In this document: positions 3,697-10,591 of the stretch, in pieces
Layout: each line of letters starts with the position of its first letter
How positions within the stretch are numbered: position 1 is the first letter of the stretch
Source of the DNA: a bacterium
GTDB taxonomy: Bacteria; Patescibacteriota; Minisyncoccia; JAJYZQ01
NCBI GenBank assembly: GCA_021799835.1
Contig: JAJYZQ010000001.1
Span: 1-25,158 of the forward strand
Direction of reading: 5' to 3'
Length of the DNA: 25,158 nucleotides
Made by a program: the position numbers and the translations under genes
Notes under the pieces: model-generated
Seen by the model: only the letters and a program-made list of their open reading frames with translations
The model's database searches: none
Told to the model about the DNA's origin: nothing

Positions 3697-5214
3697 TTAT
3701 CGGGCATATTCCACGATGCGGGATTCCCGAATGACATTGACCTTTATTTCTCCGGGATATTTCAGTTCTTGTTCAATGTTTTTCGCAATGTCTTTGGCGA
3801 GATTCCACATCGCAACATCAGTGATCTTTTCCGGATTGACAAATACGCGGATTTCCCGGCCAGCCTGGATAGCGTAGGTCTTTTCCACGCCATCAAAATT
3901 ATTGGCGATCTTTTCCAGATCTTGCAAGCGATGGATGTAATTTTCTACGGTGTCTTTCCGAGCGCCTGGCCGTGCAGCAGAAATAGCTTCTGCAACCTTC
4001 ACGATAACGCCGGTCAAGCTCTTCTGCTCCACTTCTTCGTGGTGGGCAACGACCGCATCAATAACCGCTTCTTCAACATTGAATTTTTCCAATATTCTGC
4101 GGCCGATATCAATGTGCGTTCCTTGGATCTCATGGTCCAATGCTTTGCCAATATCGTGAAGCAATGCGGCTTTCTTAGCAACCATAATGTCTGTGCCAAG
4201 TTCTGCGGCAATAATGCCAGCAATATGCGCTGCTTCTATGGAGTGCATCAGGACGTTTTGCCCAAAGCTCGTGCGGAATTGCAGTCGTCCGACGAGGGCG
4301 ATCAAGCGCGGGTCAAGTCCCACTACGCCAACATCAAACACCGCATTCTCGCCGACGGTTTTCATCTGTTCGTTGATCTCCTCTTCGGCTTTTTCAACGA
4401 CTTCCTCAATGCGCGCCGGCTGTATGCGCCCGTCTTTGATCAGTTTCTCAAGAGCTGTTTTAGCAATTTGACGCCGCATAGGGTCAAATGCTGAGATAAC
4501 AACGAGTTCTGGCGTATCGTCAATGATCAGTTCTACGCCAGTTGCTTTTTCAAATGCGCGAATGTTGCGTCCTTCTTTGCCGATGATCCTGCCTTTAACT
4601 TCTTCATTCGGCAGGGCAACGGAAGATGTGGTAAGTTCTGCTGCGTGAGATGCCGAATACCGCTCCATAGCAGTAACGATGAGCTCTTCCACTTTCTTTT
4701 GCAACTCATCAGCGCCGTCGCGTGAGACCTTCACGATGCGGCTAAATAGCGCATCGGAGGCATCTTTCTCGACCTTCTTCAAAAGTTCTTCCCGAGCTTC
4801 TTGAGGAGTAAGGTTGGCAACATGCGCAAGTTCTTCTTCTTTCTTTTGTTTGATTGCGCGCACTTGCTCCATGAGATCTTCCGCGTCCTGTTTTTTGGTC
4901 TCCAAATCCCGCTCTTTATCTTCTAAGTTGCGGATTTTGCGCTCCAAATCGGCCTCTTTAGATTCTAATCGCCGTTCTACGCGTTTGAGCTCAGTTCTTC
5001 TCCCCTCCTCATCCTTTCTCGCCTCATCCAAGACCTTTACCGCCTTATCTTTTGCGGATAGAATGACTTCTTTTGCTTGGTCTTTGGCATCAGCTAAGGT
5101 CTTTTCTGCCCTTGCTTCCAATGTGTTCGCTTGCTGGACGGCAAGGTAGCGTCGTAAGCCGTAACCACCTGCAATACCTATTCCTAAGCTAACCAAGATG
5201 TAAATGGTTAGCAT
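3697..5214 (-). CDS. rny: Ribonuclease Y
   Basis: N-terminal TM helix, coiled coil, KH domain (GRIIGKEGRNIRAFE), HD domain (LLHDIGKA...SAARPGAR), C-terminal YPGEIKVNVIRE. Confidence 0.98.
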   Translation of the reverse strand: MLTIYILVSLGIGIAGGYGLRRYLAVQQANTLEARAEKTLADAKDQAKEVILSAKDKAVKVLDEARKDEEGRRTELKRVERRLESKEADLERKIRNLEDKERDLETKKQDAEDLMEQVRAIKQKKEEELAHVANLTPQEAREELLKKVEKDASDALFSRIVKVSRDGADELQKKVEELIVTAMERYSASHAAELTTSSVALPNEEVKGRIIGKEGRNIRAFEKATGVELIIDDTPELVVISAFDPMRRQIAKTALEKLIKDGRIQPARIEEVVEKAEEEINEQMKTVGENAVFDVGVVGLDPRLIALVGRLQFRTSFGQNVLMHSIEAAHIAGIIAAELGTDIMVAKKAALLHDIGKALDHEIQGTHIDIGRRILEKFNVEEAVIDAVVAHHEEVEQKSLTGVIVKVAEAISAARPGARKDTVENYIHRLQDLEKIANNFDGVEKTYAIQAGREIRVFVNPEKITDVAMWNLAKDIAKNIEQELKYPGEIKVNVIRESRIVEYAR

Positions 5215-5717: not shown

Positions 5718-5791
5718 CGGGATGTAGCACAATTGGCTAGTGCGCTGGTTTTGGGTACCAGAGGTTCCGGGTTCAAGTCCCGGCATCCCGA
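5718..5791 (+). tRNA. tRNA-Pro (anticodon TGG); CCA not encoded
   Basis: Acceptor CGGGATG/CATCCCG+A, D-arm TAGCACAATTGGCTAGTGC, anticodon arm CTGGT-TTTGGGT-ACCAG, T-loop GGTTCAAGTCC. Confidence 0.97.
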
Positions 5792-6402
5792 CAAGCGCGG
5801 CGATAGTATGTACTTTGTGCTTTATATTTTGTTTTGCGTGTTCGGCTCAAATAGAGGTCGTTTTTCCCTTGTAGCAAAAGGTTGCTTTTGGTATGTAATA
5901 CCCTAGGTTAGCTCTTTTGATGCTCTTACGGTGAGTAAAATTTTGATAGACCCTACTGAAGCAGTATTTATGCCTTGACGGATACTGGTCTTTGAGGTTT
6001 ATTGTTTTGCTGCGCATTACGGAGTATTTAACCTGAGGCGTATACTCTGAGTGTAAGTTTGGTAGAATTTCATTTTTGTACTGAACTATACCTCAGTTTA
6101 GATAGAATGATTATGTTATATATAATACAAAAGTTCTCTAAGAACTGTTGTTTCTTGAGGAACAAAGATTGAATTAATGCTATTGATAGTGCGTAGTATA
6201 TTGAAAGTATATAGAACGCGTATAACAATGGAGAATATGATTTAATGTAGTGAAATGTTTTGAAAGAACTATCCGGTACAAATAGTTATTTGTATGTATT
6301 TCAAGATAAAAATCTTCAGTTTTACTTGTAATGCTCTAGTTTTAGGTGGATCTTCTCATCGTTTTATCTCATAATAATGAATTGTTTAATTGTTTTCTTC
6401 CC

Positions 6403-6428
6403 CTACCCGTTCTTGAGAGAACGGGTAG
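6403..6428. repeat. Perfect 11-bp hairpin
   Basis: CTACCCGTTCT-tgag-AGAACGGGTAG, with outer TTCTTC/GAAGAA pairing. Confidence 0.8.
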
Positions 6429-6732
6429 TTGCGAGAAGAACAAGGCTTTAGGACTAGAGGAGCGTATTATAAGGGTAAGTTGTGTATTATTTACAAATTT
6501 CTGTGTATGAGAAGTGAATAATGTTCATAGCTTCGTCCACTTTATATAAAATATTTGCAGTAATTCATTATTTTTAATATAATAAACTATGTTCTTTTTG
6601 AACACTATATAGTTCTATAAGAACAACAGTAATAATAAGGATCTATTTGATAATTTGTAGGTAACCTTTAGAGTGTCTGAGGCATTAAAATGGTCAAAAT
6701 TTTATATGCAAGGATAATAAATATGCCTTGCG

Positions 6733-7035
6733 AACTGTGACAATTTTCATTGTTTTGTCACACTTCCAACTGTGACAATTTGATTCATTTTGTCACAGTT
6801 CCAACTAGGACAAAACATCATAATAATATATATCAATTAACTGTGACAATTCATAAAATACAAAATGCTATTTTATGGCTTTATAGAGCTGCAAAATGAC
6901 AATTTTGTCACAGCAGATTGTCACACTTCCAACTGTGACAATTGTCACAGTTCATTTACTCATTTTGTCACAGTTCATTTGTTCTGTTTTGTCACACTTC
7001 CAACTGTGACAATTTGATTCATTTTGTCACAGTTC
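6733..7035. repeat. Dense array of an 11-bp motif (AACTGTGACAA / TTGTCACA[G/C]TT) in both orientations
   Basis: Forward copies at 6733, 6768, 6839, 6931, 7002. Reverse copies at 6790, 6942, 6965, 7024, and a 1-mismatch variant at 6755, 6918, 6989. Degenerate copies at 6803, 6894, 6905. Exact 51-bp direct repeat at 6751-6801 and 6985-7035. Confidence 0.95.
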
Positions 7036-7189
7036 GCAGAGTACGTGCCATACGTGAGTTGTAGAGGTTTTTTCTCTCCACTAAACCGGTTTGTGGTGTG
7101 CATTGTACTAATTGTTATCTCATGGTTATAATAGAATGATTGAGGCTGGTATGTTGGCGACCGCTGTCCAATAACGTGATTGCTGCACT

Positions 7190-10100
7190 ATGACTTTTAC
7201 GCATCTTCACACACACTCACATTATTCGCTTTTGGATGGGCTCGCAAAAGTCCCTGATTTGGTAAATCGGGCAAAAGAGCTCGGCATGGATGCGCTAGCG
7301 TTGACGGATCACGGCGTGATGTACGGCGCTATAGAATTTTATAAAGCCGCAAAAGCGGCAGGCATCAAACCGATCATTGGAGAGGAATTTTACTTGGCCG
7401 CAGGATCATATACCAGCAAGAATCGTGAAACGGACTATAAGCGGTATCATATCGTGCTCTTAGCAAAAGATAACGAAGGGTATCGCAATCTTATCCAGCT
7501 TACCACAGAGGCGCATCTCAATGGCTTTTATTATAAGCCACGCATAGATAAAGAGCTTCTCCGCAAGCATCACCAGGGCCTGATAGCGCTTTCTGCGTGT
7601 TTGGCGGGGGAGATTCCTCAGGCGATCCTTGCCGGTGTGTCCAAAAAAGAATTGGATCGTCTTGTTGCCATCTATAGCGATATTTTTGGCAAAGAAGATT
7701 TTTATATAGAGTTGCAGCATCATCCTAACATTCCGCAGCAGGAAAAGGTCAATCAACAATTGATCGCTCTGGCATATCAGCACGGCCTGAAGCTGGTCGC
7801 GACGAATGATATTCATTATTTGCTTGCTGAGGATGGCCCTGCGCAAGATATTTTGGTTGCTGTGCAAACAAATAAGTCTTTGCGCGATGAAAATCGGCTT
7901 TCTATGGTGAATGAGAATTTTTCTATGAAGTCTCCAGAGGAGATGGAAGAAGCATTCAGTAGTGTTCCCGAGGCAATAACCAATACTGCAGAAGTGGCTG
8001 AAAAATGTACTGTTGAATTAGAGTTGGGGAAAATTCAACTGCCCTTTTATAAGATTCCTGAGAGCCATACCTATGAATCCTATGTGCGGGAATTGTGTCA
8101 TATAGGGTTACAAAAGCGTTTTGGATTCGCTACTAATGATACAAAACTATTTCCCCGGGATACTCAAGGGGTGATTATAGTGGGTGCCAACCGTGACGAG
8201 CATACCCGCACGATCCTTGAGCGATTCAATTATGAAATGTCCATTATTGAGAAGACCGGTTTCGCTTCCTATTTCTTGATCGTGCAAGATTTTGTGAACT
8301 GGGCGAAAGATAATGGCATTGTGGTGGGGCCGGGCCGCGGATCTGCTGCAGGATCATTAGTGGCGTATCTCTTGGGCATTACCAACATTGATCCGCTGAA
8401 GTATGACCTTCTGTTTGAGCGGTTTCTGAATCCAGAGCGCATTAGTATGCCGGATATTGATATGGATTTTGCAGATGCGCGCCGCGACGAGGTGCTTGCA
8501 TACGTGGCGCAGCGGTATGGGCGCAACCATGTGGCGCAGATCATCACCTTTGGTACAATGGCATCAAAGGCAGCTATTCGCGATGTTGGGCGGTCATTGG
8601 GTTATGAATACTCTTACTGCGACAACATTGCTAAAATGGTGCCGTTCGGTTGGAATCTCAAGCAAACATTGGACGGCGACCAAGAATTTCAGCGGCTCTA
8701 TAATACTGATGATAAGGCGCGCCGGCTGATAGATTTTGCGTTGAAGCTGGAAGGAGTGTCGCGCCATGCATCTACGCATGCGTGCGGCGTGGTAATTACT
8801 AAAGATCCTTTAGAGCAGATCGTAGCACTCCAGTATGCGTCCCGATCAAAGTCGGCGGTCACAGGTGCGGCAAATGCGGACGATGCAGGAAATGAGAGCG
8901 GAGGAGAATCTGCAGCAGTAGCCCAGTATGTTTCCCATGAAGCATATAATGCCATCAAGAATTCCCCGCAGAACGTAGTGACGCAGTATGAGATGCACGC
9001 CATTGAAGATCTTGGATTGCTGAAAATGGACTTTCTTGGCTTAAGAAACCTTACGATCATTGAAAACACACTCAAGCTAATCAAAAAGATCCACAACGTG
9101 GATATTGATATTGATGCATTGCCGCTTGATGATGATCAGACGTTTGCGTTGTTCCGCCGCGGTAATACAACCGGCGTATTTCAGTTTGAATCTGCAGGTA
9201 TGAAGCGCTATCTGAAAGAGCTGAAGTCAACGAATATTGAAGACGTGATCGCTATGGTTGCGCTGTATCGTCCCGGCCCGATCCAATTCATTCCGGATTA
9301 CATTGATCGCAAGCACGGCCGTACGCCGGTCACGTATCTGGATCCGCGGCTTGAGCCGATAATGGAAAATACGTATGGCGTTATGGTGTATCAAGAGCAG
9401 CTGATGCGCCTTTCTATGGATTTGGCGGGGTTTTCGCGGGGAGAAGCGGATGTTTTGCGCAAAGCAGTAGGCAAAAAGATTAAAGCTCTTCTTGATGAGC
9501 AGAAGACAAAGCTGATAGAGGGAATGATCAAAAATGGTGTGCAAAAAAATACAGCCCAGCAGATATGGGATTCTATAGAGCCGTTTGCAAGCTACGGCTT
9601 TAATCGGAGCCATTCCGTATGCTATGCAGTCATTGCCTATCAAACAGCATACCTCAAGAGCCATTATCCGGCAGAGTTTATGGCAGTGCTTTTAGGCTAT
9701 GATGCGCTGGATATTGAACGAACGGCGTTTCTCATTGACGAGTGTAAAGCTATGGATATCCCCGTATTTTCGCCGGATATCAATGAAAGCAAGGAAAATT
9801 TTACGGTGATCTCAGCACAAGGAAAGCAGGGGAAAGATAGCATTCGTTTCGGCCTGTCCGCCATTAAAAATGTCAGTGCAAATATGGTAAGGGCGATCAT
9901 AGAGGAGCGTCGTGTGGGAGGAAGATTCCATTCTATGGAGGATTTTGTGTTTCGTATGGATCCCACAGCGCTCAATAAAAAATCTCTAGAGGCGCTGATC
10001 AAGTCAGGCGCGTTTGATTCATTGGGCGAGCGCAATGCTTTGTTGGAAAACTTGGAGCATATGCTGCATGCGGTGCGCAAGCTGAATACCATGGTCAGCG

Positions 10101-10591
10101 GTGGCCAGATGGGATTGTTTGATGTCGCACCAAGCGATGATGCTGCCAGTGCACATAACGGATTTCTCTTTAAGATAGAAATGAAAAAAGCCACCCCTGC
10201 CTCGCCTCAAGAAAAGCTTTTTTGGGAAAAAGATCTTTTGGGGTTATATACATCCGGACATCCTATGGCGGATGTCTACGTCTCAAAAGGCACGCGGAAA
10301 ATAGGGGATTGTTATCAGGCCACGGTCAATCCCGCAAATCCGCCGGTGGTGCAGGTTGCCGGCATTGTCAATAAAATCAAGCGCAATTTAACCAAGAAGG
10401 GTGAGTTGATGCTTTTTGTAGAAGTTGAGGATACGACGGGAAAAATAGAGCTGGTGGTGTTTCCGCGCGTACTTGCCCAGTCTATGGATCTTTGGCGCGA
10501 ACGGAATATCATATCTGTATCGGGCAGGCTTGACAATCGGGGCAATTCGTTAAAAATTGTATGCAATAATGCGCAATTGATAGAAGTGTAA
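7190..10591 (+). CDS. dnaE: DNA polymerase III alpha subunit
   Basis: PHP domain (HLHTHSHYSLLDG, TDHG, TNDIHY), GPGRGSAAGSLVAY, catalytic MPDIDMDF and KMDFLGL, YGFNRSH, C-terminal OB fold. Confidence 0.99.
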   Translation: MTFTHLHTHSHYSLLDGLAKVPDLVNRAKELGMDALALTDHGVMYGAIEFYKAAKAAGIKPIIGEEFYLAAGSYTSKNRETDYKRYHIVLLAKDNEGYRNLIQLTTEAHLNGFYYKPRIDKELLRKHHQGLIALSACLAGEIPQAILAGVSKKELDRLVAIYSDIFGKEDFYIELQHHPNIPQQEKVNQQLIALAYQHGLKLVATNDIHYLLAEDGPAQDILVAVQTNKSLRDENRLSMVNENFSMKSPEEMEEAFSSVPEAITNTAEVAEKCTVELELGKIQLPFYKIPESHTYESYVRELCHIGLQKRFGFATNDTKLFPRDTQGVIIVGANRDEHTRTILERFNYEMSIIEKTGFASYFLIVQDFVNWAKDNGIVVGPGRGSAAGSLVAYLLGITNIDPLKYDLLFERFLNPERISMPDIDMDFADARRDEVLAYVAQRYGRNHVAQIITFGTMASKAAIRDVGRSLGYEYSYCDNIAKMVPFGWNLKQTLDGDQEFQRLYNTDDKARRLIDFALKLEGVSRHASTHACGVVITKDPLEQIVALQYASRSKSAVTGAANADDAGNESGGESAAVAQYVSHEAYNAIKNSPQNVVTQYEMHAIEDLGLLKMDFLGLRNLTIIENTLKLIKKIHNVDIDIDALPLDDDQTFALFRRGNTTGVFQFESAGMKRYLKELKSTNIEDVIAMVALYRPGPIQFIPDYIDRKHGRTPVTYLDPRLEPIMENTYGVMVYQEQLMRLSMDLAGFSRGEADVLRKAVGKKIKALLDEQKTKLIEGMIKNGVQKNTAQQIWDSIEPFASYGFNRSHSVCYAVIAYQTAYLKSHYPAEFMAVLLGYDALDIERTAFLIDECKAMDIPVFSPDINESKENFTVISAQGKQGKDSIRFGLSAIKNVSANMVRAIIEERRVGGRFHSMEDFVFRMDPTALNKKSLEALIKSGAFDSLGERNALLENLEHMLHAVRKLNTMVSGGQMGLFDVAPSDDAASAHNGFLFKIEMKKATPASPQEKLFWEKDLLGLYTSGHPMADVYVSKGTRKIGDCYQATVNPANPPVVQVAGIVNKIKRNLTKKGELMLFVEVEDTTGKIELVVFPRVLAQSMDLWRERNIISVSGRLDNRGNSLKIVCNNAQLIEV

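Follow-up and report, generated by a model that had tools for sequence, protein, structure and literature searches.

A paired repeat array upstream of dnaE in a CPR bacterium as a candidate docking platform for the winged-helix protein P0001

Introduction

Type II parC centromeres, such as those of plasmids R1 and pSK41, consist of clusters of 10–11-bp repeats situated around a promoter and bound cooperatively by ParR, a ribbon-helix-helix protein, and they combine autoregulation with a structural role; parC is located upstream of parMR. Plasmid F carries iterons on both sides of repE as well as an inverted repeat at the repE promoter (PMC13028717). Multi-site arrays read by winged-helix proteins are an already known kind of system. 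A further protein fold of relevance here is that of PF05635, which has been linked to Avd, with reference to the five-bundle assembly of Xcc0516 (PMC10053308).

The locus described here lies on a DNA stretch of 25,158 nucleotides (referred to as the window), which is contig C26 of the metagenome-assembled genome G000, a CPR-type genome of 537 kb in 101 contigs, 77% complete and with 47.7% GC. Its nearest relatives in the genome set are class-level kin only, with genomes of 0.5–1.3 Mb, a pattern typical of CPR/Patescibacteria, and the metagenome runs containing the window sequence come from mine drainage, tailings, sediment, and soil. A repeat array upstream of dnaE in the window is one of a pair, the second member of which adjoins the gene of an orphan protein, P0001. 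In the literature found, the P0001-type architecture, its restriction to CPR bacteria, the paired-array layout, and the association with DnaA boxes are not described.

The Array Upstream of dnaE

The array is located within the 1975-bp gap between rny and dnaE. The features of this region, in window coordinates, are as follows:

3697–5214, minus strand: rny
5718–5792, plus strand: tRNA-Pro (TGG), from the Rfam/tRNA search
5793–6732, no strand: AT-rich spacer from tRNA-Pro to the array (29–32% GC), ORF-free and unique in the genome
6733–7035, no strand: array of 14–15 copies of the 11-mer AACTGTGACAA in both orientations, assessed by copy count against shuffles
6755–6778, no strand: 24-bp tail-to-tail palindromic unit, with identical copies at 6918–6941 and 6989–7012 and a degenerate one at 6790–6813
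6931–6952, no strand: perfect palindrome of 22 bp in which two copies abut head to head, from the sequence repeat analysis
7104–7132, plus strand: candidate dnaE promoter (TTGTAC, about 17 nt, TATAAT), read from the sequence, the consensus scan not having listed it
7190–10591, plus strand: dnaE (DNA polymerase III alpha, 1133 aa)

The initial annotation, made from the letters of the window, had described 12 near-identical copies of the 11-mer together with degenerate ones in a fixed geometry, and this description stands. All 12 copies with at most one mismatch to AACTGTGACAA lie within 6733–7034, while dinucleotide shuffles yielded 0.35 on average and never more than 3; two further copies, at 6803 (plus) and 6905 (minus), have two mismatches each, and a weaker one is present at 6892–6902. 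Every site sits inside a near-palindromic 13-mer, AAYTGTSACARTT. All four occurrences of the 24-bp unit were re-checked; this unit is probably the basic two-site operator, and its 13-bp start-to-start pair also occurs in the second array. An 11-nt gap separates the partners of three head-to-head pairs (6733/6755, 6768/6790, and 7002/7024), and the forward copies starting at 6733, 6768, 6803, and 6839 follow each other at 35, 35, and 36 bp. Over the whole array the start-to-start spacings are 11, 13, 22–24, and 35–36 bp. The repeats have no unique spacers, the intervening material being itself repeated, which, together with their length of 11 bp and their occurrence in both orientations, rules out a CRISPR array. 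The TATAAT noted earlier occupies 7127–7132, ahead of the dnaE ATG at 7190, and the candidate promoter to which it belongs starts 69 bp past the array end.

The Rfam search of the window returned tRNA-Pro alone, and past this gene 1.4 kb of DNA are devoid of ORFs. Within the spacer, several short GTTC...GAAC palindromes and a perfect hairpin with an 11-bp stem (6403–6428) are found between 6100 and 6630, with no Rfam match and no ORF. On the minus strand, at 6714–6743 and 6820–6849, two array copies contain a TTGTCA hexamer resembling a −35 element, 18 nt away from TATTAT; these pairs are possible leftward promoters directed toward the AT-rich spacer.

Distribution of the Motif and the Second Array

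A genome-wide scan for clusters of AACTGTGACAA, which the initial annotation had proposed as a check, placed 22 of the 24 copies (at most one mismatch) in two arrays, the one in the window (6733–7034) and another on contig C11 (3763–4018); all 18 exact copies in G000 are inside these two. The motif is absent from 40 class-level relatives, the 24-bp palindrome was found in no other public metagenome or genome contig searched, and a comparison of the array with plasmid records gave no similarity.

The C11 array comprises ten sites with start-to-start distances of 13, 24, 24, 77, 24, 24, 13, 24, and 22 bp, among which a plus-strand triplet and a minus-strand triplet face each other over a 66-bp AT-rich core. 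It ends 73 bp upstream of the orphan gene P0001, with a promoter-like TTGACT/TATCGT pair in between. The Rfam search of C11 gave nothing credible.

A dispersed REP-like element of 47 bp, organized around the palindrome CCTGCCTACCGGCAGGCAGG, is present in G000 in at least seven full and many partial copies (C11:2671–2725 and 4280–4326, locus L009, as well as sites on C68, C4, C35, C34, and C62). It differs from AACTGTGACAA, which is confined to two loci, so that the arrays themselves are not dispersed REP/RAYT hairpins. Two inverted copies of the 47-bp element bracket P0001 and the C11 array; they were considered as transposon ends and rejected as such, being members of the dispersed REP-like family.

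The P0001 Protein and Its Family

P0001 is the product of a 305-aa ORF. A word search of 5.8 billion clustered proteins returned only P0001 itself, as did an exhaustive phmmer search of 1.84 billion representatives. A language-model search yielded CPR hypothetical proteins of 270–320 aa, some of them with HTH_DeoR, and per-genome profile searches identified weak but consistent relatives in 33 of 400 other genomes of the class, with E-values of 1e-4 to 1e-6 per genome. The alignment of 20 relatives contains an N-terminal block, LTxAxYRVTDxFP, and a C-terminal block, SxKTIQRDL...GxKRWxxYxL, joined by a variable low-complexity linker; HTH_DeoR is matched in 15 of the 20 and PF05635 in one.

Searched against the PDB, the family profile matched the PF05635 protein 2gsc over the N-domain (E 4e-4), BlaI/MecI-type winged helices, and, weakly, the archaeal centromere-binding protein AspA. 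Single-sequence folding of P0001 was uninformative; AF2 run with the alignment gave a confident four-helix bundle (residues 7–151), a disordered linker (155–232), and a winged helix (234–297). Structural superposition of the modeled bundle gave Z 10.6 with 2rld and Z 10.5 with the DGR protein Avd (4dwl), and a Foldseek search of the model against the PDB and AFDB returned generic winged helices only. Judged by these profiles and models, the family is one with a predicted N-terminal PF05635/Avd-like bundle, a variable linker, and a predicted C-terminal DeoR-type winged helix.

Solved proteins of the Avd/PF05635 four-helix-bundle fold are pentamers. The N-domain of P0001 matches them both by profile (2gsc) and by structure (2rld, 4dwl), and a pentameric state of P0001 is putative, by likeness of fold; unlike these proteins, P0001 has its bundle fused via a long linker to a predicted sequence-specific winged helix. 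The genomes of the two relatives described below, G150 and G035, yielded no reverse transcriptase, and the family is therefore not regarded as a DGR component.

The linker-coding DNA of P0001 (L009:3020–3250) contains four TTYCCGG motifs in 230 bp, which may be a second embedded set of sites or mere codon repetition. Elsewhere in G000, a reverse-transcriptase gene (RVT_1, E 9e-15) is located at C9:5648–6355 (L091).

Arrays at the Family Genes of Relatives

Two relatives belonging to different taxonomic families, G035 and G150, were examined in detail. The G035 homologue is a protein of 248 aa whose N-domain is 27% identical to that of P0001 (pairwise E 7e-8). A run of nine contiguous repeats of 11 bp (ATAAATGWCAK) starts 63 bp downstream of its gene, and beyond it extend 1.4 kb of AT-rich DNA devoid of ORFs. 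The double repeat unit clusters at just one other place in the genome, C48:5037–5140; this second array, by reading of the sequence, comes after a Mur-ligase-like gene. In G150, the gene of the homologue P0003 (236 aa) contains 11–12 copies of AGTTCGGCAA in its own linker-coding region, in several reading frames, and a second array of about 11 copies is situated at 35.6 kb of contig C4 in a 710-bp AT-rich gap, with spacings that include 24 bp three times and 13–14 bp. G000, G035, and G150 thus have exactly two arrays each, one at the family gene and one elsewhere. The 13/24-bp spacing is common to G000 and G150, and the G035 arrays are composed of contiguous 11-bp units.

Smaller sets of sites were found at other family genes: in G262 TAACGGACA is present three times at the start codon, and in G109 the gene is flanked on either side by 22-bp palindromes, 24-bp pairs being present as well. 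Most family loci have few sites or none. The motif cores near family genes, CTGTGACAA, TAACGGACAA, GTTCGGCAA, GATGTCGGACATC, and AAATGACAG, are related to each other, with endings such as ...GTGACAA, ...CGGACAA, ...TCGGCAA, and ...ATGACAG, a likeness to be expected if homologous recognition helices have diverged. The hairpins near the family gene in genomes of family f39 (L038, L048, L060) were not counted among the family sites; at these loci the family gene adjoins a Y1 transposase gene (IS200-like/RAYT) with perfect hairpins of 23 bp on its flanks, and the hairpins belong to the transposase.

A conserved link to dnaE, which the initial annotation had suggested looking for in relatives, was not borne out. 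The second arrays of G150 and G035 adjoin unrelated genes, and the dnaE adjacency is therefore specific to the G000 lineage. As regards the family genes, three genomes have ftsK as the divergent upstream neighbor, and one has gyrB upstream. At several family loci a DnaA box is located about 100–350 bp downstream of the family gene, and in G109 at least it coincides with a promoter-like sequence ahead of the gene of a PG_binding_1 protein. The order ftsK (divergent), family gene, exact DnaA box, large PG_binding_1 envelope gene is found at L036, L043, L044, L056, and L074, from several CPR families, and suggests DnaA-linked control of the envelope genes.

Assembly Support and Plasticity of the Array

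The possibility that the array is an assembly artifact, acknowledged in the initial annotation, was ruled out, since four independent assemblies reproduce it; those from NCBI, ENA, and JGI (L014–L016) carry the array exactly or with one difference. Over the complete 1975-bp intergenic region, the NCBI genome and the JGI contig match the window exactly or but for one base, and the ENA contig L015 is identical to the window in the array and everything upstream of it. The comparison of the array covered L014–L016; a further ENA contig, L023, spans this intergenic region. In addition, Logan unitigs of two studies tile the array at near-flank depth. The strain represented by L015 carries 10 substitutions, without exception transitions, in the 127 bp at 7063–7189, between the array and dnaE, and none in the array; elsewhere in the 9.4-kb locus it has only seven differences, and its DnaE protein is identical. 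Recombination may have left this patch of substitutions, or the promoter may be evolving fast.

The length of the array is nevertheless variable, as revealed by a comparison of Logan contigs of four runs with the window. Three features are involved:

6751–6801, plus strand: 51-bp exact direct repeat, first copy
6985–7035, plus strand: 51-bp exact direct repeat, second copy
6799–6997, no strand: segment present head-to-tail with a 199-bp period in one metagenome, at about 11 times flank depth (run X6, record 16, 257 versus 22.9)

The exact 51-bp duplication had already been recognized in the initial annotation, and it is a recombination substrate: one Logan contig (L017) lacks exactly the 234 bp between the two repeats, and the same deletion, joining both copies, is carried by a chromosome-depth contig (22.9x) of the tailings run X6. 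In two studies the inner 243-bp unitig is present at about 0.7 times flank depth, which makes the full array the major form there. In run X6 a separate 229-bp unitig links 6997 back to 6799 through novel junction words at 257x, which points either to the array having been amplified in tandem or to a separate molecule present in many copies.

A Proposed Docking Platform for P0001

The initial annotation had proposed, in general terms, a multi-site protein-loading platform, and the present data support this proposal. The motif is confined to two arrays, one of which abuts the gene of the predicted winged-helix protein P0001, and the linkage of gene and array recurs in two distant homologues with paired arrays of 11-bp motifs, one of them repeating the 13/24-bp spacing. 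The array is, moreover, fully conserved in the strain with 10 substitutions in the adjacent 127 bp. We consider it somewhat more probable than not, at roughly 55%, that the array, one of two such site clusters in G000, serves P0001 as a docking platform, on which the protein probably forms a promoter-proximal nucleoprotein complex. The link between P0001 and the motif is associative, and we infer binding, oligomerization, and a regulatory effect. Against this reading weigh the weak E-values of the family and the small number or absence of sites at most family loci.

In the proposed mechanism each winged helix would read one 11-mer, with the core TGTGACAA, and several winged helices would be tethered by flexible linkers to one oligomeric Avd-like core. 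Such tethered domains could take sites of mixed orientation and loose spacing (13, 22–24, and 35 bp), and the resulting cooperative complex would coat about 300 bp of AT-rich DNA. This arrangement would explain why mixed orientation is tolerated, why the spacing is only loosely quantized, and why there are some 10–15 sites per array. The complex on C11 would cover P0001's own promoter and lead to autoregulation. Situated 70–370 bp ahead of the dnaE promoter, the complex in the window would most likely dampen this promoter or insulate it, and the two loci could be bridged. A simple steric repression of dnaE is made less plausible by the 69 bp between the array and the −35 downstream of it, a long distance for such an effect; since the dnaE adjacency is not conserved in G150 and G035, an effect on dnaE may be incidental.

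Among described regulators, the autoregulated winged-helix repressors BlaI/MecI, DeoR, and ArsR/MarR are nearest to the C-terminal domain of P0001, and their sites, too, overlap or abut the promoter of the protein's own gene. They have one to three sites per locus, whereas P0001 has ten to fifteen, a second array at an unlinked locus, and a putative oligomerization domain of a different fold.

Alternative Explanations

Replication control of the iteron type, similar to that of plasmids, is the most probable of the alternatives, but we regard it as unlikely. It would make the C11 unit (P0001 gene, array, AT-rich core, and DnaA box) an ori-like element with P0001 as its initiator, and the window array an inc-like handcuffing partner, as with oriS and incC around repE in F. 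The likeness to Rep_3 iterons comprises short repeats, a reader with a winged helix (predicted for P0001), two arrays per protein gene, an inverted pair at the protein's own promoter, a 24-bp period, and DnaA boxes and AT-rich DNA beside some of the arrays. C11 has 24-bp-spaced triplets, the AT-rich core between the opposed triplets, and an exact DnaA box 199 bp away. In a metagenome scan, the iterons of enterobacterial RepE (Rep_3) plasmids were found to contain AACTGTGACAA at a 24-bp period. Three of the six arrays have an exact DnaA box, TTATCCACA, no more than 200 bp away (C11:4217 and, in G150, L062:2045 and L076:1928), against a background of about one per 35–50 kb; the two boxes beside the G150 arrays are two of only six in 200 kb of that genome, and around 17 other family genes 18 exact boxes were found in 54 kb, compared with none in the reversed control. 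The G150 array within the linker-coding region of the family gene is reminiscent of ori-lambda in gene O and of RepA_N plasmids.

Several properties argue against this reading. Unlike Rep_3 iterons, the sites of the window array are of mixed orientation and have no DnaA box within 500 bp. P0001, a predicted four-helix bundle with a single winged helix, is neither a Rep_3 nor a WH1-WH2 protein and has no detectable similarity to RepE, and a search of G000, a genome 77% complete, gave no Rep_3 protein (Rep3_N). The family genes are chromosomal, in conserved synteny (ftsK, family gene, PG_binding_1 protein) with no mobile-element genes nearby, and the DnaA boxes often lie in the promoter of the downstream gene. 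Finally, the GC skew of the 249-kb contig of G150 is strongly negative between position 1 and about 148 kb, with the switch beside dnaA (143.9 kb), and at both arrays (35.6 and 81.8 kb, that is, 108 and 62 kb from dnaA and the switch) it is unbroken, so that they are not long-term origins; lying inside one replichore without a kink, neither is the chromosomal origin or terminus. A looser search for two-copy patterns retrieved mostly coding tandem repeats and RepE plasmids; a Fic-domain match obtained in it (L136) is unrelated.

The iteron features could also belong to an unrecognized chromosome-borne system of CPR bacteria, a possibility that we put forward just as tentatively. In such a system an Avd-like oligomer with tethered winged helices would act on two cognate iteron arrays flanked by DnaA boxes and couple replication initiation or DnaA availability to the expression of dnaE and of large envelope genes, as a domesticated circuit of plasmid-style handcuffing or titration in ultra-small genomes.

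Even less likely is a role in chromosome organization or segregation, with the arrays serving as centromere- or macrodomain-like landmarks at which the bound protein would bring about pairing, anchoring, or condensation of DNA, in functional analogy to parC/ParR, parS/ParB, or matS/MatP. The occurrence of exactly two arrays per genome in three lineages, the position of family genes next to ftsK or gyrB, and the weak profile match to AspA are in line with it. The contiguous repeats of G035, with their 11-bp period, resemble the parC iterons of R1, and repeat clusters around a promoter are common to both systems. The sites in G000, in contrast, are spaced and inverted, and no ParA or ParM partner is adjacent; the window array is flanked by tRNA-Pro and dnaE. 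Canonical parS is not matched either, as the initial annotation had stated and as direct reading confirmed, the 16-bp palindrome TGTTNCACGTGAAACA being absent from the array. The G150 arrays are not placed symmetrically, at 62 and 108 kb from oriC, and nothing connects the protein to the divisome.

A comparably low probability is assigned to a functionless or selfish expansion of repeats, generated by slippage and unequal recombination in an AT-rich spacer and only by coincidence near P0001 on C11. The instability of the array length between populations (the 234-bp deletion via the 51-bp repeats and the amplification with a 199-bp period) speaks for such an origin, and large duplicated blocks make up part of the copy number. 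However, the same spacing pattern is present at two unlinked loci with different flanks, the sites occur in both orientations with a conserved pair geometry, genes and arrays are linked in three taxonomic families, and the lineages have related motif cores.

The weakest alternative, a chromosomal origin with non-canonical DnaA boxes, is very improbable: the region is AT-rich and ORF-free, its flanks diverge (rny on the minus strand, dnaE and thrS on the plus strand), and rpsF-ssb-rpsR is nearby, but no TTATCCACA with up to one mismatch is present between 2266 and 11559, in agreement with the earlier remark that the array does not match the DnaA box, domain IV of DnaA retains the canonical GGRDHTTV signature, dnaA-dnaN is on contig C52, the window has no clean GC-skew switch, and the G150 arrays lie inside one replichore. 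In G000, dnaA is cut by the end of the contig (C52:1–343, L020), so that domain IV only, followed by dnaN, is present and the region upstream, the expected place of oriC, is absent from the assembly. Five DnaA-box-like GTGGATAA repeats with a spacing of 10–20 bp at C62:9848–9961 (L019) were considered as a possible oriC and rejected; they are located directly upstream of mraZ and are probably MraZ boxes.

Significance

The regulation of replication genes and the organization of very small chromosomes are almost unexplored in CPR/Patescibacteria. Here a non-coding repeat block is linked to a candidate protein and to a family spread over a CPR class, the two-array layout recurs, and DnaA boxes are found nearby. 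A defined DNA fragment, a motif, and a protein domain are at hand for binding tests. If P0001 binds the array, this would represent a new architecture for multi-site DNA recognition, in which an Avd-type bundle tethers winged helices, and it may provide an entry point to cell-cycle control in organisms so far genetically intractable.
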